Positions 54,356-64,000 of a stretch of DNA of 64,000 nt are shown here, piece after piece. Made by a program: the position numbers and the translations under genes. A model generated the notes under the pieces. The model made no database searches, was not told the origin of the DNA, and saw only the letters and a list, made by a program, of their open reading frames with translations. Position 1 is the stretch's first letter, and each line of letters opens with the position of its first letter. The stretch is from a bacterium (GTDB lineage: Bacteria > Zhuqueibacterota > Zhuqueibacteria > Residuimicrobiales > Krinioviventaceae). The DNA lies in contig OY843751.1 in NCBI GenBank assembly GCA_963693055.1, forward strand, positions 4,448,001 to 4,512,000, given 5' to 3'.

Positions 54356-55294
54356 TTATTTATATAAATTTACACCATTGTTCAAGGCGGTTTGGCGTAA
54401 ATAAGCAAATGCCTCTCTATATTCTGTTTCAGAGGCAAGATGTTCTATCATCAGCGGGGCGTCGAGTTTGCTTAGGTTTTTCAAAAACACACCATAATTT
54501 AAATACCCCTTACCAGGCAGAATTTCATCCAAATGCGTAGACAAGCTGTTGTGTTGGAGAACAATATCTTTAGCATGACAGCTTTTGATATATGGTCCCA
54601 GCTTTTTAAAGCATTCATCAATTAATGCAGCATTGTTAAAATATCGTTGCGGGGAATTGACTATATTCACAGGATCCAAATGCACAGCAAACCGTTCACG
54701 GTCAATGGCTTTGATCAACTGAAAATAAGAATCAGGAGAATCCGGATACAACCATGGCATCATTTCCAGAGTAAAAAAAGTCCGTTTGGGTTTTACAGTG
54801 TCAATGATTTTGCGGTATGTTTCAACAATAAGATCAAAGGTATCATCCGTCAGATTATCCGAATGTATACCATACCACAATGTCTCACTTTTTGATCCCG
54901 AAACATTCACACAGCATCGCGCACCAATTCGGTCTGCAAGGTCAAGACTGCCAATACATTTTTCAATGGCTTTATTACGCTCATCATCATTGGGACTCAG
55001 GGGATTGCTCCACGCTCCAACCTCAGCAATAACGATATCTGCTTTCAGTGCGGCTTTTTTATATTCGCTTACCTCATCATCCGCGCTGCCTATCGAAAGC
55101 GGACAATAAGCGGCAGTGTATCCCATATCCTTAACAGATGCAACCCAGCTTTCGGGATCCGTCCACTTTTTGTATATATTGCCGCCAATACGTACTCCGG
55201 CTTGCTGCGCAGGGTACAGCTTTTGAGACATCGGTGCAGATGCCAATAGCGGAACAGCCACAGTTTTTGCTAAAAAAGTCCGTCTGTTCATCAT
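54356..55294 (-). CDS. Sugar-phosphate isomerase/epimerase (TIM barrel), Tat signal
   Basis: MMNRRTFL; [27 protein letters not shown]; ATGA overlap with topA stop. Confidence 0.85.
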
Positions 55295-57933
55295 GCCTTT
55301 GCTTTGGTTTTGGGTTTTGCTTTCTTTTTGGTTGTTTTTTTCTTGGTTTCCCATTCCCATTTATTGTTTTTATAAAAAGCTTCCCAACCGGTTTTCTTGC
55401 CGTCAACTTCGGTCATGAGATATTGTATTTTCTCTTTTCGTTTAAAACGGATCTGTGCCGGAACACCATCCGGATCGGTTGATGGTGCATCCGCAAGATA
55501 GTAAAATTTCGGGTCCAGCTCGTCCCGATGTCTTGCCAGATCTTCCACTAACGGACTGCGGGTCTCGCGGGATTTGGGAAAAGTATGCGCCGCCAGAAAC
55601 AAGCCCGAGGCCCCGTCTCGAAGTAAAAAATACGCATCCGACTTTTCACATTTCAGTTCAGGCATGGGTACAGGCTCGGCTTTGGGTGGCGCGGCCTCAC
55701 CGTTGCGCAAAAGCTTTCGGGTGTTACTGCATTCCGGATATTTGGTACAAGCGAAAAATTTACCAAACCGTCCCGTTTTTAACACCATATCACTGCCGCA
55801 TTTATCACACTCGAGTACCGGCCCTTCATATCCTTTGATACGGAATTCGCCTGCTTCAATTTCTGTACCACTGCAGTTTGGATTATTGCCGCAAACATGC
55901 AAACGACGTTTTTCGTCAACCAGATAAGCATCCATTGCCGTATTGCATATAGGGCAACGACGTTTATTCATTAATGCCATGGTTTCTTCATCAATATCTG
56001 CATTTTTGCTTACAGTTTCTGATTCTTCACCGGGAATCAGGTTAATAGTCTGCTTGCATCGCTCCTTGGGAGACAGATCATATCCCGTACAGCTCAAAAA
56101 AACACCGGTTTGACCATTTCGAATCATCATGGGTTTTCCACATTCGGTACAAGTAATGCCCTCAACAACAACCGGCACATTGTCTCGCATGCCGGTTTCA
56201 CCGGCACGGAGCTGGTTCTCAAAATCATGAAAAAACTCATCCAATAGATTTTTCCACTCTTGATCACCTTGCGACACCTTGTCCAGATCGGTTTCCATGT
56301 TGGCAGTAAAATCATAATCCATTAAATCGATAAAACTATCCATTAACCGGTCTGTTACAATATCACCAATCTTTAAAGCATAAAACCGTCTTTTTTCTAG
56401 CTTAACATATCCGCGATCCTGTATTGTGGAAATAATTGACGCATAGGTAGAAGGGCGGCCAATTCCACGCTTTTCAAGCTCTTTTACCAGACTTGCTTCC
56501 GTATATCTTGGAGGTGGTTTGGTAAAATGCTGACTGGGATCCAGCTTTAATAATTTTAATATATCTCCAACATTGACTTCCGGCAATACGGCATCATCGG
56601 TATCACGAGAGGGCATAATCTTGAGCCAGCCGTCAAACCGCATGGTTCTTCCTGTAGCACGCAGATCAAAATCGCCCGCTGTAATATTGATGGTTGTGCT
56701 GTCAAATTCAGCCGGCGGCATCTGGCAGGCTACAAACCGGCGCCAGATCAAATCATACAATCTCAATTGATCACGTTCAAGACGTATCATCCGTTCCGGA
56801 GTTTTATTTACATCTGTGGGACGAATAGCTTCATGCGCTTCTTGCGCTGAAGCTTTACTGGAATAAAAATTGGGTTTTTCCGGCAGATATCTTTCACCAA
56901 AATTGGTTTTAATAAACTCACGGCATCCCATAATAGAGCCCATGCTAAGATTTGTAGAATCCGTACGCATGTAGGTAATATGCCCGGCCTCATACAACCG
57001 CTGGGCCATCATCATGGTCTTTTTCACACTGAATCCCAGCTGGGTGCTTGCAGCAGCTTGTAATGATGTGGTAATAAAGGGGGCATAGGGACGTTGCTTT
57101 GTGGGTTTCAGCTTGGCTTCTTCAACGCGGTATTCTGCTTCGGTCAACATGGCCAAAGCTTCAAAGGTCTCTTTTTCATTAGTGGGCTTAAAGGTCTTGC
57201 TTTTATATTTCAGAACCTTGGCTTTAAAGGGAGGTTCACCATCCAGATGAGCAAAAACTTCCCAAAACTCTTCGGGAACAAAGGCACGGATCTCCCGCTC
57301 ACGTTCAACAATCAATCGAACGGCCACAGATTGCACCCGCCCGGCAGACAAACCTCGCGCAACCTTTTTCCACAACAAGGGAGATACCATAAAACCTACT
57401 ACTCGGTCCAGAAAACGTCTGGCTTGTTGCGCATTCACCCGGTTCATATCCAGTTCACCTGGCTCACTGAACGCTTTTTGAATTGCGTTTTTGGTTATCT
57501 CGCTAAAGGTAACCCTTTTATAACGTTTATCATCACCGCCAATAGATTCACGTAAATGCCATGCAATGGCTTCCCCTTCACGGTCAAGGTCAGTTGCAAG
57601 ATAAATTTCACCAGACTCACCGGCAAGCTTTTTCAACTGTCTCAACACTTTTTCTTTACCGGGAATAATCTCGTAACGTGCTTCCCACCCATTGTAGGGA
57701 TCAATAGCCATCGTTCGAACAAGATTTTCTCTGGAACGATTTTTCTTAAATTCAGCTTTTTCCTGATCAGAAAGACCTTTGGGCATTCTATTGACAGTTG
57801 CTTTCCCACTGCTCCGAACAGGCAAATCACGTATATGACCAATACTGGAGACTACAACATACTCATCTCCCAGATACTTGTTTATAGTTTTGGCCTTAGC
57901 CGGAGATTCAACAATAACTAGCGCTTTTTTCAT
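55291..57933 (-). CDS. topA: DNA topoisomerase I (type IA) with Zn-ribbon C-terminus
   Basis: [25 protein letters not shown] (catalytic Tyr), GIGRPSTY, C4 ribbons. Confidence 0.97.
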
Positions 57934-58044: not shown

Positions 58045-58416
58045 TCAGGCCAATGCTTGTTCTAATGCGTTAAACAAACGCTCATCTACAATAGGTTTTA
58101 CGAGAAAAATTGATTCGGAATCTTGCTCAAGTCTGTCTAATGTACGTTTATCTGAATTACCTGTAAGGTAAATAATTGGAATTGAAAATTCTTTTCTGAT
58201 ATTTGAAGCCGTTTCAATTCCATCCATGTCCCCTCTTAGACCGATATCCATAATAACAATATCGGGTCCATATTCTTTTACACTCTTTAAACAATCTTTT
58301 CCTGAATTTACCACAGCTACAACATTATAACCTTTTTCATTTAGCTTTAATTCAGTATCCAAAGCAATAATTGCATCATCTTCCGCAATAATCACCCTAG
58401 CTTTATCATTGTTCAT
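58045..58416 (-). CDS. Stand-alone response regulator receiver
   Basis: AEDD, MDI phospho-Asp, YLTG, VKP. Confidence 0.9.
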   Translation of the reverse strand: MNNDKARVIIAEDDAIIALDTELKLNEKGYNVVAVVNSGKDCLKSVKEYGPDIVIMDIGLRGDMDGIETASNIRKEFSIPIIYLTGNSDKRTLDRLEQDSESIFLVKPIVDERLFNALEQALA

Positions 58417-58517
58417 AGATCACTCCGTGTTGTTAATATCTTAAAACTTAAAAGTATTAGAGTCTATTCCATAAAAAACAGGAAAAACAATCAGGAATAA
58501 GCTTTTTTTGATGTCGA

Positions 58518-58586
58518 AATAGGAAATTCCTTACAACAAAATACGTAATTCTCCCTATTTCATTTTTGGAATCAGTGTATTATATT
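58518..58586 (+). promoter_or_regulatory. Putative activator-dependent promoter: two boxes 22 bp apart abutting TTTCAT-17-TATATT
   Basis: TAGGAAATTCCTTA (58520) and TACGTAATTCTCCCTA (58542); -35 at 58558-58563, -10 at 58581-58586. Confidence 0.4.
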
Positions 58587-58592
58587 TAATCA

Positions 58593-58756
58593 GTTAGTTA
58601 ACGCAAGCAGCAATGCTTATATGTCACCCCCGGTACTGGCGACCCCCCTAAGCTGGTACTGAGACATCTTTTGTGCGTTAACGACTTAATGCCAAGCGTC
58701 ACCCCCGGTACCGGTGACCCCCCTAAATCGGTACTTAGACGGCTTGGCATTTTTTT
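58593..58756 (+). ncRNA. Candidate small RNA with two tandem C-rich hairpin modules
   Basis: Repeats 58623-58665 and 58698-58740 with identical loops GACCCCCCTAA, compensatory stem changes, 9-bp closing stem, GCAA tetraloop, terminal stem + T-run. Confidence 0.7.
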
Positions 58757-58771
58757 ATTATTAGCATTTTT

Positions 58772-60280
58772 TTAATAAATTGCTTCACCAATTTCCAGCA
58801 CTATATCAATCCTACGATTTTTACGACGACCATCTTCAGTTTCATTACTGGCTATCGGTTTGCTTTTTCCATAACCAATACTCTGTATTTGTTCAGAAGG
58901 CAAGCCCATATTGGCTATCAAATAAGATTTTACAGCATTTGATCGTTGTTCGGAAAGTTTCTGATTCGCGGCATCGTGACCTCTCGAGTCGGTATGACCT
59001 TCAATAACAATAGGTGCATTGGGGAACTCTCGTATAGCTCGCTGTACCTTGGTCAGCAATCCAAAATAACCGGGCTCAATTACACTCTTGCCTGAGGCAA
59101 AGTTTAAACCCACCAAACGAATAACAAGATTGGTGCCCTCGCGCAGTACAACCGCTTCCTGAGGCGCATACATATCTTCAATGCGCTTGATCTTGGCTTC
59201 CTGACGCTTCTTGACTTCAAGTGTCTCTTTCAAGCCAGCTTCCTGTTGTTTGCTTACATCCAGTTCTGCTGTAAGCTTGCGGTTTTTTGCCATACTTTCA
59301 TCAAGTTCTTTATTTACCCGCTCTAATTCCTTGCGCAGTTCACTCTTATCATCCAGAGACGCAGCAATTGCCAGATGCAGTGATTCCATAGCAGGTTCTA
59401 TACCATTGTCATACTGCACATCCAGCTTCATTGTGTTTGAAACGGTCGAGAGATTATCTTCAAGATCCAGAAAAACCTTTTCCCAACTATCTTCTTCTTT
59501 ACGATTTTTTTGAATCAAATCTGAAAGAAAAATAGCATGATTGGCTTCATACTCTGCATCTTCTGCTTTCTCTCTGGCTGTTGATTGAGCGCTGCGGTCA
59601 GTGTTAAGAATATTCTCAGCTTCCTGCAGCAATACCTTTGCCCGGTTATAAGTTCGGGGAGCATAACGATCTGCTTTTGTTTCCCTGGCCTTATCCAAAA
59701 GCAGATGTACCTTGCCAATAATACTGGCCTTGATCGCTTTCAATTCGGCTTGACGATAACGATCTTCTCCATCTTTGGCTCTCTTGATTGCATTGTTGAT
59801 ATCATTATCTTCAATCTCTTCCATTGCATCTTTAAAACTGCGTTCTGCCTGCTCATACAATTCTAAAGCGAATTCAGGGGCATTAGCTATCAATGCGTCA
59901 TCACGTGCCTGAATCAAAAAAGGAAGCTGTTTTTTGGCTTCTTTTGCATTACCAATTGCTTTTGCAAGATACTCTTCAGCACGATTCAAATTCTTTTGGA
60001 TACTTTTAACATCCCGCCCACGCTCAAGATCCAGCTTTGCTTCATCAAAGTGCCGTTGGGCCCGTTCAAAATCATTTGGTGATAAAACATGAACCTGGAG
60101 TGATTGAGCATCTTCAAGGACGTGCTCAATGTCAACCAATTTTTGGTTCATTTGCGCCAATATTCCCTGCTCACCAGCCTGTGAAAAAACAGAACCGGGA
60201 GTAGAAACCAGCACAACGAACAAGATCAACATAAAATAAACAGGCAAGTTTTTATTGCCATTTCTCAAGACTAAAGACAT
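58772..60280 (-). CDS. OmpA-family peptidoglycan-binding protein with long helical/coiled-coil (DUF4398-like repeats) N-terminus
   Basis: IEGHTDSRG, NQKLSEQRS.AV, GYGKSKPIASN, GRRKNRRIDI; repeated AP..Y..A helices. Confidence 0.88.
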   Translation of the reverse strand: MSLVLRNGNKNLPVYFMLILFVVLVSTPGSVFSQAGEQGILAQMNQKLVDIEHVLEDAQSLQVHVLSPNDFERAQRHFDEAKLDLERGRDVKSIQKNLNRAEEYLAKAIGNAKEAKKQLPFLIQARDDALIANAPEFALELYEQAERSFKDAMEEIEDNDINNAIKRAKDGEDRYRQAELKAIKASIIGKVHLLLDKARETKADRYAPRTYNRAKVLLQEAENILNTDRSAQSTAREKAEDAEYEANHAIFLSDLIQKNRKEEDSWEKVFLDLEDNLSTVSNTMKLDVQYDNGIEPAMESLHLAIAASLDDKSELRKELERVNKELDESMAKNRKLTAELDVSKQQEAGLKETLEVKKRQEAKIKRIEDMYAPQEAVVLREGTNLVIRLVGLNFASGKSVIEPGYFGLLTKVQRAIREFPNAPIVIEGHTDSRGHDAANQKLSEQRSNAVKSYLIANMGLPSEQIQSIGYGKSKPIASNETEDGRRKNRRIDIVLEIGEAIY

Positions 60281-60305
60281 AATACCTCCCCTCTCCTTCT
60301 TTTTT

Positions 60306-60701
60306 TTAATGAGGTAATGTAACTTTTGTCAAAGCTTCTCTCAAGTTTTCAGGTGTTACCGGCTTTGTCAAATACCATTCACACCCTTCATTGAATGAAG
60401 ACATGATATCTTTGACATCATTTTTAATTGTAATCATTAATATTTTTGCTTCCTGAGAGAACTTGACCTTATTATCAGTTTCCCATTTACGGATATAATG
60501 AACTACCTGCTGTCCTGACATATCTGGCATTTCAATATCCATAGTAATCAAATTATAAGGATCAGAATCTTTATGTGCTTTTTCAAACATAGACAGAGCT
60601 TCTTCACCATTCGGAACCGCATCACACGTACCATACTCAGACAATAATGCCTGCAATTTTGTACGGCTCACGTAATCATCATCCACAACCAATATCCTCA
60701 T
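60306..60701 (-). CDS. CheY-like single-domain response regulator
   Basis: VVDDD, MDIEMP, MIT, LTKP. Confidence 0.9.
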   Translation of the reverse strand: MRILVVDDDYVSRTKLQALLSEYGTCDAVPNGEEALSMFEKAHKDSDPYNLITMDIEMPDMSGQQVVHYIRKWETDNKVKFSQEAKILMITIKNDVKDIMSSFNEGCEWYLTKPVTPENLREALTKVTLPH

Positions 60702-60724
60702 TGCTAACTCCTTTCAGTTGGAAA

Positions 60725-62986
60725 TTATTTTTTATTATTGATATATTCTGTTAAATTATTTGCTTCAGTCTGAAATGACTGAAAATAATCTTGCATATTC
60801 ATTGTGTTATTGACCAGCGCACTCTCTTCAATTTTTTCCGCCCAACTTGCAAGTGGCATTGCCGTAAGATTGGCTGCACCGCCTCTTATTTTATGAGCTT
60901 CTGCAGCGAGTTTTTTCAAATCATTCTCTGCCAACGCCTGCTCAAACCGGGCTAACTGGTTTTTCACATCAACTAAAAAATGTTCCAATACATTATCAAG
61001 GACCTTTTGGTTTCCACCAAATTCTACAATAGCTCGCTCATAATCAATAGGTTTATGATTATTTTCTACTGGTTGTTCTTGATCTATTGGAACACTATTG
61101 TTTTCTACAATTATTTCATCATTTCCGGGCATCCATTTTTTTACCTGACGAACAAATGTTTTTCTTCGCAAAGGCTTTACCAGTACATCACTCATACCCA
61201 ATTCTTTACACTTTTGCCGGGTTGCAGAATCTGCATGAGCAGTAATAGCAAGAATAGGTACATTTTTATAATAGCTGACAAGAGATCTTATCTTTTGCGC
61301 AGCTTCATATCCACTCATTTCCGGCATCTGTAAATCCATCAATACCAGATCATAATGGTTTTTCTTGCATAATTCTATAGCATCTCTTCCATTATCAGCA
61401 GTATCAATCTTGTAATCTGTTTCATTCAAATGCTGTAATGCAACCTGCATATTGGGATAATAATCATCAACAATTATAATCTTTCCCTGCCCAGAACCTG
61501 CAGCCAGCGGCAGAATCACTTTTTCTTCAATTCCATCAACTGCATCTGCATGTACTTCCATTGGCAGTACAAACCAGAAATGGCTCCCTTCTCCTGGTTC
61601 ACTTTCCAGAAAAATTTGCCCGTTCATCAACTCTACTAGTTGATAAGCAATAGTAGTACCCAGGCCGGTTCCGCCATATTTGCGGGTAATGCTTCCATCT
61701 GCCTGTGTAAAACTTTTAAAAATATCTTTTTGTTTATTTTTAGGAATACCGATACCAGTATCATATACATGAAATTCAATATTATGGAATGGGTCAGTTT
61801 TATTTTCAACAGTTACAGCAACCTTCACATGACCTGATTCAGTAAATTTTACTGCATTACTGCATAAATTCATTAAAACCTGAAGCAGACGAAGTTCATC
61901 GCCCAGATATGTCAATTGTTTTTCATTATCAATTTCAATTTCAAAATTTAGATTTTTTGTATCTGCAAGTATTTTAACACTTTTGCTCAATTTCTCCATT
62001 ACATGTCTCAAGCTGAACGGCCTTTGTTCAATCAGCATCTTTCCGGCTTCAATTTTTGCCAGATCTAAAAGATCACTGATCAACAAAAGCAGCATTTCAG
62101 ATTGTTCCAATACTGTTCCAGCATGATCATAAATATTATCAAGTGTGTTTGAATTCAATATTGATTCTGAAAATCCAATTATCGAGTTCAATGGAGTTCG
62201 CATTTCATGAGACATGTTGAAAACAAACTGGGACTTTAATCGGTTTGCATCTTCTGCTACCTTTTTTGCATGTCTTAAATTCTCTTCCGCTCTTTTTCGT
62301 TCAATATAAGCACCCAGCATTTCACTGGCTGTTTGTAAAACTCTTAAATCTACAGAACGCCATTTTTTCTCACGGCTATTATCAACAAAACAAATCATAC
62401 CGTACCATTCTTTGTTGACAAAAATGGGAATAACCAGTAAAGATTCAATAGACAGCTCTACTAAAAATTGCCTCTCTTCTTCTTTAAACTCGCCTGTTAC
62501 ACCAAAAATAGGGTTCCGGGAATTCAATTCAGCTGCCCATCGCTGCAATCCTTTTGAATAGTGCAAGGGAGACAATAATTTATTTTTCATTTGACGATGA
62601 AAGCCTTTGGAGCAACGTTCATTTGTTACTCTTGCTCCCAAACCCCATTTGTAATTGTGGTTCTTTAACACCCATACACGACTAACACCTACTGACTTTT
62701 GTAAAAATCCAAGCCCTGTATCAACAGAATCTTTTTGAGTTACCAGCAAAGCTTTAGAAAAATTTGCAAGCCCCTCTTCATAACGAAGACGAATTGCAAG
62801 GGCATTCTGAGCGTTTTGCTTTTCTTCAATTTCCTGGTTCAGCTGCTCGTTTATATTTGCAAGCTTTGTATATATCTCGTAATAATTTTTCCGTGAAGTT
62901 TCATACTCTTCCTGGGTCAACTGGAGATCATTATTCAGATGCTTAATTTCTGTCTCCAGTAAATGTATCTTTTGTTTGTGATCCAT
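60725..62986 (-). CDS. Cytoplasmic hybrid histidine kinase (GAF-HisKA-HATPase-REC-HPt)
   Basis: SHEMRTPLN, NLCSNAVKFT, DTGIG, GGTGLG, MDLQMP, AHKIRGGA. Confidence 0.93.
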   Translation of the reverse strand: MDHKQKIHLLETEIKHLNNDLQLTQEEYETSRKNYYEIYTKLANINEQLNQEIEEKQNAQNALAIRLRYEEGLANFSKALLVTQKDSVDTGLGFLQKSVGVSRVWVLKNHNYKWGLGARVTNERCSKGFHRQMKNKLLSPLHYSKGLQRWAAELNSRNPIFGVTGEFKEEERQFLVELSIESLLVIPIFVNKEWYGMICFVDNSREKKWRSVDLRVLQTASEMLGAYIERKRAEENLRHAKKVAEDANRLKSQFVFNMSHEMRTPLNSIIGFSESILNSNTLDNIYDHAGTVLEQSEMLLLLISDLLDLAKIEAGKMLIEQRPFSLRHVMEKLSKSVKILADTKNLNFEIEIDNEKQLTYLGDELRLLQVLMNLCSNAVKFTESGHVKVAVTVENKTDPFHNIEFHVYDTGIGIPKNKQKDIFKSFTQADGSITRKYGGTGLGTTIAYQLVELMNGQIFLESEPGEGSHFWFVLPMEVHADAVDGIEEKVILPLAAGSGQGKIIIVDDYYPNMQVALQHLNETDYKIDTADNGRDAIELCKKNHYDLVLMDLQMPEMSGYEAAQKIRSLVSYYKNVPILAITAHADSATRQKCKELGMSDVLVKPLRRKTFVRQVKKWMPGNDEIIVENNSVPIDQEQPVENNHKPIDYERAIVEFGGNQKVLDNVLEHFLVDVKNQLARFEQALAENDLKKLAAEAHKIRGGAANLTAMPLASWAEKIEESALVNNTMNMQDYFQSFQTEANNLTEYINNKK

Positions 62987-62987
62987 A

Positions 62988-63869
62988 TTAAAAGATGCCC
63001 ATCTCTTCCATTTTTTTCAATTCAGCTTGCATATTCTTGGCTATAAGATCAAGCGCTTGCTCAGACAGGCTCAAACGCTCCAAGGCAATTTTAAACTCTA
63101 CATGATCTACATACGGAGCATCTCCAAAGCCTACTTGATTTACCTGGCAGTAATAATCTGCAATATATATTGTATTACATAAACGTATATGGTCTTGATC
63201 GTTCCGGGCAGGATTATGATGGTTTCCCACAGCGCGTGCATATTCATTTGGCAAGTTCCAACTTTCAATAAGAGCCTGCCCAATACCTGAATGATTAAAG
63301 CCCAAGATTTCAAATTCAACAGCGTCCAGATTTCTTTGCTGCTGTTCAGTTATTGTAAGTGCTTGTTTAAATTCTTCCTGCATAAACTGGTCCATTGCTA
63401 TTATACCAATATCATGCAGCATGCCTGCCACATAGGCATTCTCACCCCGTTCACCAAATTCACGTCTGTAAATCATTTTAGCAAGTAAAGCCACTGCAAA
63501 GCTATGTCGCCACAGAGCAGGTCTGGAATAAGCCCCAATACAAACCTCTTTTTCAAAAATCTCACATACCTTTTGACTAAGAACAATTTCTTTTACGGTA
63601 TTGAATCCCAGCCATATAACAGCTTGATCAATTTCTTTGATTTTATTCTGAGGAGAATAGTACGCCGAGTTTGCTACCTTTAACACCCTTGCAGTTAATG
63701 GAGGATCAACCTCAATGATCTCCTCGAGGTCTTTTGCAGTAGAATCTGGATCGTTTATGATCTGTATGATCCGGGTAACCACACTTTTAATTGTAGAAAT
63801 GTTGGATTGGTTAATATTTTCAATTAACTCAAGTAAACGTGTATTTTTCACTTCTGTATTTTCAGTCAT
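62988..63869 (-). CDS. HDOD domain protein
   Basis: DPPLTARVLKVANSAYY, LWRHS, GMLHDIG, HH motif. Confidence 0.9.
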   Translation of the reverse strand: MTENTEVKNTRLLELIENINQSNISTIKSVVTRIIQIINDPDSTAKDLEEIIEVDPPLTARVLKVANSAYYSPQNKIKEIDQAVIWLGFNTVKEIVLSQKVCEIFEKEVCIGAYSRPALWRHSFAVALLAKMIYRREFGERGENAYVAGMLHDIGIIAMDQFMQEEFKQALTITEQQQRNLDAVEFEILGFNHSGIGQALIESWNLPNEYARAVGNHHNPARNDQDHIRLCNTIYIADYYCQVNQVGFGDAPYVDHVEFKIALERLSLSEQALDLIAKNMQAELKKMEEMGIF

Positions 63870-64000
63870 CCTTTTTCCTGCTTTTTTAAAATTACTGTTT
63901 ACTATCCTGCTAACATTCAAATCATTCAGAGAATGCCATTCATATATGTCTTGTTCAATATATTTATATTCTTAAAACCAATTTAGCAATATCAACTCAC

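Follow-up and report, generated by a model that had tools for sequence, protein, structure and literature searches.

A family of predicted C-loop small RNAs in the phylum KSB1 (Zhuqueibacterota) with an apparent origin in the rpsT terminator

We describe a predicted small RNA of 164 nt, encoded on the + strand at 58593..58756 of the window, the stretch of 64,000 nt of bacterial DNA analysed here (contig OY843751.1, positions 4,448,001 to 4,512,000). It consists of two modules of a family whose unit, as judged by sequence comparison, is one long hairpin of about 70 nt that has a fixed C-rich loop and ends in its own terminator. The gene would be one of three sibling loci in its genome, with its own promoter and terminator, and its activation by a NarL-type response regulator is likely. 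For KSB1, an uncultured phylum of the FCB group according to the parts of the phylum description available to us (PMC11683472), this adds a near-universal predicted small RNA, a candidate regulator with its predicted binding site, and a testable class of targets. The initial annotation, which had proposed a free-standing small RNA with C-rich loops at this position, did not include the operator, the connection with a NarL-type regulator or the probable origin at rpsT.

The predicted RNA gene

The RNA lies in a spacer with zero ORFs of at least 80 aa, in line with the initial annotation, and its GC content is 51%, compared with 27% in the preceding part of the spacer. The congeneric genome G001 carries it with 96% identity, and contigs from two public runs of one sample, possibly the source of this DNA, cover the stretch with zero differences. 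The minimum-energy fold of 58593-58756 has -58.9 kcal/mol and a z-score of -5.90, and none of 200 shuffles was equally good. When the interval 58570-58780 was folded, the + strand gave a z-score of -4.25 (0/200 shuffles as good) and the - strand -1.87 (9/200), which supports the earlier proposal of a structured + strand RNA of about 165 nt.

Outside the element, a gene for a stand-alone receiver-domain protein (58045..58416, - strand) diverges from the RNA and is followed by topA (55291-57933, - strand), while an OmpA-domain protein (58772..60280, - strand) is convergent, with its stop codon 15 nt from the U-run of the RNA. Since both neighbouring genes are on the - strand, the RNA is not a leader, and the view of it as a free-standing unit holds. 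The ompA gene itself stands at the end of a - strand signalling cluster (60306-63920), in which it is preceded by an HDOD protein, a hybrid kinase of the composition GAF-HisKA-HATPase-receiver-Hpt and a receiver protein.

In the fold, the 5' domain (58597..58682, + strand), seen in this genus only, is closed by a stem of 9 bp (58597-58605 paired with 58674-58682) that leads into a three-way junction. The junction includes a tetraloop hairpin (58605..58618, + strand) and was seen in G000 and G001 only; the tetraloop is GCAA in the window and GUAA in G001, so that the GNRA character is kept. Module 1 (58623..58665, + strand; 44.8 bits under model R1) comprises a C-rich bulge (58626-58630), an inner stem and the loop GACCCCCCUAA at 58641-58651, with an unpaired probability of at least 0.98, and is without a terminator of its own. 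Module 2 (58688..58756, + strand; 83.7 bits under model R1, with covariation) is a full family unit and a predicted intrinsic terminator, built from an outer stem, a C-rich bulge (58701-58706), an inner stem, the loop at 58716-58726 and a U-run (58750-58756).

Most of this structure had been recognised beforehand. The minimum-energy fold contains the closing stem, the GCAA hairpin and the terminal stem that leads into the U-run, and the C-rich loops of both modules are indeed exposed, with unpaired probabilities of at least 0.97. The two 43-nt units described within the modules (58623-58665 and 58698-58740) were correctly placed and share 37 of 43 bases; their loops (58641-58651 and 58716-58726) and 5' bulges are identical, and the four changes in the inner stem preserve pairing as claimed. 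The sixth difference between the units lies in the internal loop, on the unpaired 3' side.

The module family and its loop

A search of related genomes for covariation, proposed together with the initial annotation, brought out a module family with strongly covarying stems. It also corrected the proposed two-module architecture of 6C or cuckoo type: the conserved unit is instead a single hairpin-terminator of about 70 nt. In the DNA search of 61 related genomes, the conserved part was the second half of the RNA, that is, this hairpin with its U-run. Two modules occur in the window RNA and in several other genomes, a single one in most, and the two-module form with the three-way junction was seen only in this genus. 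A parallel form was seen at L197, L178, L124 and L151, where two modules stand behind a sigma54-type promoter and module 1 is without the outer stem; in several of these cases the RNA lies behind the gene for an ABC auxiliary lipoprotein.

In an alignment of 39 sequences, 91% of the cells pair, compared with 28-48% in slid controls, and double changes occur at 18 of 21 pairs. An independent consensus fold recovered the same two helices. Another 80, more distant matches and 44 metagenome matches gave the same picture of covariation, both alignments being fitted to the covariance model. For the broader model, 80 matches were realigned from 70 fetched loci, and all of them keep the loop.

The loop is the most constant part of the family. 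We compiled 133 distinct copies, the set left after removal of four low-scoring pattern matches and of duplicates. All 133 loops contain at least four C followed by UA, with a C-run of mostly six, the commonest being GACCCCCCUAA (n=47) and AACCCCCCUAA (n=33); part of this invariance is circular, since the loop contributes to the model scores. The stems covary freely across the phylum while the loop stays fixed. The initial annotation had described both loop and bulge as identical between the two units; across the family the terminal loop is fixed and the 5' bulge is not, being C-rich in 100/133 copies.

Distribution

The genome of the window (6.5 Mb) carries four units at three loci, namely the window, C1:3126589-3126659 and C1:5917313-5917388, so the RNA is not a dispersed repeat. 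The first model found matches in 76 of 151 genomes of the phylum. With the broader covariance model (E<=0.001), 115 of the 151 KSB1 genomes match, with 1-7 copies each, while the same model and threshold gave 0/101 in an unrelated phylum and 0/5 in five other genomes. Within KSB1, the model search did not find the module in the families f11 (0/14), f20 (0/3), f25, f26 and f13; the f11 tallies, here as well as for CsrA and RRM proteins, include the unpublished genomes G118 and G151, and the remaining 12 agree.

When 185,579 species genomes were scanned with a sequence pattern, 51 loci were obtained, of which 44 scored at least 24 bits. By record title, these 44 belong to KSB1 (11), Calditrichota-type bacteria (5), Cytophagia (12), unnamed bacteria (15) and Actinomycetota (1). 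Six loci with titles of clearly unrelated taxa had at most 18.9 bits or no score, and one further record had less than 20 bits or none. The locus titled Actinomycetota has, across the RNA, the same sequence as one of the copies from the window's family. Among the loosely titled loci, many are duplicates of copies in genomes classified within the same phylum as the window, and we therefore read the RNA family as belonging to KSB1; the pattern is strict, and sister phyla may also hold copies. The S20 proteins of the metagenome matches mix with those of the phylum genomes in a poorly resolved tree. In this weak tree, the S20 proteins of L153, L276, L290 and L306 group with RNA-negative f11, yet these loci keep the loop, which suggests a recent loss of the module in f11.

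Promoters and a candidate regulator

A conserved operator, predicted to be the site of a NarL/LuxR-type response regulator, was located with a promoter matrix at 58515..58559 (+ strand). It contains two imperfect inverted repeats of 16 bp (58519-58534 and 58542-58557), the second of which abuts the -35 element. A matrix trained on 18 promoters from other genera, with training sites chosen by a short anchor that the window operator shares, gave 41.8 bits for this operator and 20.5 bits for the next-best site in the genome; the leave-one-out score of the operator is 46 bits. At 9 of 12 positions, the first repeat agrees with the GacA site given in PMC4353343. The predicted -35 element (TTTCAT, 58558..58563, + strand) is weak; its position is aligned across 20 promoters of the operator class, and after a further 17 nt follows the predicted -10 element (TATATT, 58581..58586, + strand), which has the same hexamer class and distance in the aligned promoters. 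From these two positions, the start is predicted near 58593. A simple scan of the locus, restricted to terminator loops of 3-8 nt and to a near-consensus -35, called neither promoter nor terminator.

Three disjoint promoter classes were distinguished among the 133 copies: operator (33), sigma54-type (12) and ECF-type (22). The operator class was defined by a leave-one-out score of at least 22 bits for the 45-nt operator and includes the window copy; the other two were assigned by the consensus motifs of sigma54-type (-24/-12) and ECF-type promoters, with background rates of 0.0001 and 0.002 per scanned segment, respectively. Among the 70 upstream proteins scanned, out of 108 found, there were 17 receiver-GerE proteins, two S20 proteins and two sigma54 activators, both of the latter in front of sigma54-class copies.

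In the genome of the window, a receiver-GerE regulator (C1:3126724-3127377) is encoded behind a GAF-PAS-HisKA_3 kinase, and the second RNA copy follows 68 nt after the regulator gene. Of the 43 genomes in the order to which the window belongs, 37 have an orthologue of the regulator, and in 20 of these 37 an RNA copy lies about 70-290 nt behind the gene. The other 17 have no adjacent copy among those listed; some of them have operator-class copies elsewhere, like the window. Orthologous copies behind the regulator carry the operator, while in the window's genome the operator-bearing copy is the one in the window. The window genome's copy behind the regulator (L021:4590-4725) keeps -35/-10-like elements and is without the operator. 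At L058, L060, L061 and L063, all of one genus, an operator-class copy was found behind groEL, not behind the regulator gene. Activation of the window RNA by the NarL-type response regulator is likely, a link that rests on synteny and motif. The activating pair would be encoded at C1:3126724-3131000 and consist of this receiver-GerE regulator and the histidine kinase with its multiple PAS domains.

Probable origin at rpsT

Among 20 fetched weaker matches from distant families, 14 have the module as the terminator directly behind rpsT. Likewise, 41 of the 44 metagenome matches to the loop pattern follow rpsT, all 44 scoring at least 30 bits. In the window's order, the rpsT terminator is loopless in 5/5 genomes; those of G000 and G005 consist of the outer stem only, the inside being gone. 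Five RNA-negative genomes have a plain terminator behind rpsT. On the simplest reading, which we infer from this distribution, the job of the loop is separable from terminating the rpsT message and has moved to free-standing inducible genes. The module would have begun as the rpsT terminator and then been copied behind inducible promoters, so that several signals would reach one output. If so, it illustrates a route of small-RNA birth in which a housekeeping terminator with its loop is copied behind at least three kinds of inducible promoters and the loop is lost at the old site. L309 (G000, behind rpsT) and L312 keep the outer stem of the family and have lost the inner hairpin and loop, and appear to be relics.

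The copies have no fixed orientation to the genes downstream (54 on the same strand, 72 on the opposite strand, 7 with none), and 92/133 lie behind a same-strand ORF. We rejected a riboswitch or 5' leader: the window has no same-strand gene downstream, and 72 of the 133 copies face a gene on the opposite strand.

Proposed mode of action and alternatives

With moderate confidence, we propose from the sequence data that the exposed C-rich loops pair with G-run ribosome-binding sites and thereby repress translation. The regulator would bind 58519-58557, from about 58593 the 164-nt RNA would be transcribed, and its loop and bulge would start Hfq-independent G-C pairing with many mRNAs, in the manner of 6C and LhrC, with a bias to exported proteins. 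In the parts of the literature available to us, 6C loops are described to pair with an AGGGGGG site chaperone-free (PMC6486639), and the LhrC siblings to depend on one two-component system (PMC4132741). Hfq was not found in the genome of the window, which encodes five cold-shock proteins.

The 16S tail and the Shine-Dalgarno consensus of this genome are standard. Among 2719 ORFs, whose start codons were chosen without Shine-Dalgarno scoring, G-runs peak at -15 to -6 of the start, with 156 in two 5-nt bins and 1-24 per bin elsewhere. Exported-looking genes make up 61% of the 157 G-run genes and 41% of the AGGAG-type genes (p 3e-6, with a crude predictor); in a larger gene set the fractions are 52% and 38%. 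This bias may reflect clusters of paralogues. The stretch G000:C1:4075385-4092261 encodes a tandem array of six paralogues, each about 1100 aa long and with a start resembling a signal peptide, that all have the same G-run ribosome-binding site; they are candidate targets and could also give rise to the export bias. The loop reaches pairing energies of -10 kcal/mol or better in 6.6% of start regions and in 3.7% of coding regions, so its preference for start regions is about two-fold, compared with about six-fold for the true 16S tail. Perfect complements of the loop before start codons were no commoner than those of a reversed control in 46 genomes, and no recurring target gene family was found among 50 fetched complement matches. 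The G-rich ribosome-binding site of the convergent ompA gene (60280-60300, - strand) is in the top 41 of 4971 predicted loop partners.

In the loop, the purine-A head and the UA tail are conserved beyond what pairing with a Shine-Dalgarno site would require, and such a head and tail would suit a protein. The same gene under the same control might work by titration, with the loop as a decoy for a pyrimidine-binding protein in a cascade like Gac/Rsm, in which a C-loop code replaces GGA. We consider this possible, although rather unlikely. It would agree with the GacA-like site, the only operator of the genome, in front of the RNA gene, with a loop that is fixed phylum-wide while the stems drift, with tandem modules and copy expansion, and with the failure to find a conserved mRNA target. 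However, most copies have a single loop, and around start codons, where mRNA sites of the repressor would be expected, the loop motif shows no enrichment. Neither of the candidate proteins follows the RNA: CsrA occurs in 0/12 and 0/7 genomes of two families in which the RNA is found in 12/12 and 7/7, and RRM proteins in 0/4 and 0/5 genomes where all have the RNA, but in 14/14 where the RNA was not found. A broader form of this idea, which we regard as speculative and somewhat less probable, is that the C-loop of the S20 terminator is an ancient, phylum-wide regulatory RNA that reports ribosome synthesis, was copied in KSB1 lineages behind three promoter types to form a global switch, and titrates a loop-binding protein. 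If true, the S20 C-loop switch would be an equivalent of Csr/Rsm in which both the RNA code and the protein differ.

A role confined to cis is improbable; the module would then terminate or stabilise the 3' end of a transcript, and its loop would matter solely for that transcript, be it rpsT, the regulator operon or the convergent ompA. Its position as the rpsT terminator in most of the distant families, the same-strand ORF in front of 92/133 copies and the mere 15 nt between module 2 and the ompA stop would fit such a role. Nevertheless, the window copy is flanked by no same-strand gene and yet its promoter is conserved, an own promoter motif is present in at least 67/133 copies, and loopless rpsT terminators work in this order and in two other families.

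We give still less credence to pairing of the loop with one non-coding partner, either a small RNA, for which the RNA would be a sponge, or rRNA, for which it would be a ribosome ligand. A fixed loop does fit a fixed partner, and in the rRNA operon region 8 nt at C1:4557350 are complementary to the loop variant that contains U; on the other hand, an 8-mer match within several kilobases is weak, the all-C loop of this order would mismatch there, and apart from the RNA copies themselves perfect complements exist in just three places. A DNA-level repeat (REP, MITE or recombination site) or a short-peptide gene is very improbable, since the copies, palindromic, multiple and at times tandem as they are and with short ATG-started frames across both modules, number just 1-7 per genome, keep G-U pairs on one strand and the promoter and U-run on constant sides, and are absent as full copies from 12 viral loci. 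These viral loci came from a search for phage carriage with three patterns, and three of them have the inner hairpin only, at about 21 bits. The peptide reading was rejected as conservation does not extend to the ATG and the frame is shifted by indels, and REP or MITE elements were rejected as there are four units at three loci rather than many dispersed copies.

Comparison with known RNA systems

The proposed pairing of the loops with ribosome-binding sites places the RNA beside several known systems, each compared here with the parts of the cited source available to us. Like 6C RNA of Actinobacteria (PMC6486639), it has hairpin loops of about six C, an Hfq-less host and a predicted pairing with G-run ribosome-binding sites. 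In contrast to 6C, the unit described here is a single long hairpin with interruptions, which doubles as the terminator, its loop has a fixed head and a UA tail, and several siblings per genome occur in another phylum. We rejected 6C membership: Rfam gave no match at E<=10 for the window or at E<=5 for 40 loci with family members, the family unit has one terminal loop in place of the two stem-loops of 6C (the window form has two modules), and the matches lie in the window's phylum. The loops of about six C themselves are found in the family copies.

The cuckoo/CcsR RNAs of Alphaproteobacteria (PMC4615179) are similarly modular and multi-copy, with compensatory stem changes and one constant C-rich loop. 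Here, however, the loop differs from the cuckoo motif CCUCCUCCC, single modules are usual, the stems are long and interrupted, and the phylum is another one. Membership was rejected, as the inventory holds no CCUCCUCCC loop, Rfam gave no match and the family is not alphaproteobacterial. Overall, the Rfam comparison returned only two chance matches for the window, and chance matches only for the 40 member loci, which upholds the novelty that had been proposed.

With LhrC1-5 of Listeria (PMC4132741), the family shares siblings, redundant C-rich sites, one of them in the terminator loop, and, as predicted here, control by a two-component system (LisRK for LhrC). No sequence likeness to LhrC was found, and the family differs in its three promoter types and the rpsT-linked copy. 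The GacS/GacA-RsmY/RsmZ system (PMC4353343) would be comparable in its receiver-GerE regulator, a similar upstream inverted repeat and outputs that are apparently only RNA genes, but here the RNA has no GGA, CsrA does not co-occur and the kinase is of a PAS-rich HisKA_3 type. Csr/Rsm membership was rejected because 58593-58756 contains no GGA and CsrA does not co-occur. FopS/RbpB of Bacteroides (PMC11697453), from the same superphylum, is likewise multi-copy and Hfq-less and represses translation of envelope proteins. The seed of FopS is single-stranded and located 5', before the terminator, whereas here it would be in the loop of the terminator hairpin; a single-stranded 5' seed was absent from our folds and RRM proteins do not co-occur, so membership was rejected.

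Most likely, then, the working mode resembles that of 6C, cuckoo, LhrC and FopS, while the family was rejected as a member of 6C, cuckoo and FopS and showed no sequence likeness to LhrC. The kind of RNA is familiar; new are the family, its breadth across the phylum, the putative seed in the terminator hairpin, the probable origin at rpsT and the dedicated candidate regulator. C-loop RNAs look like a solution that Hfq-less bacteria have reached many times. We found no literature on small RNAs of KSB1 or on rpsT-derived RNAs, which subscription papers or the supplements of motif screens could hold; in the main text of the KSB1 phylum paper (PMC11683472), no word begins with RNA. At L228 (G010:C2, three sites), L240 and L259, further repeated elements of the C-run-UAA type were seen that do not share the family fold, and these are possibly divergent members or a second family.
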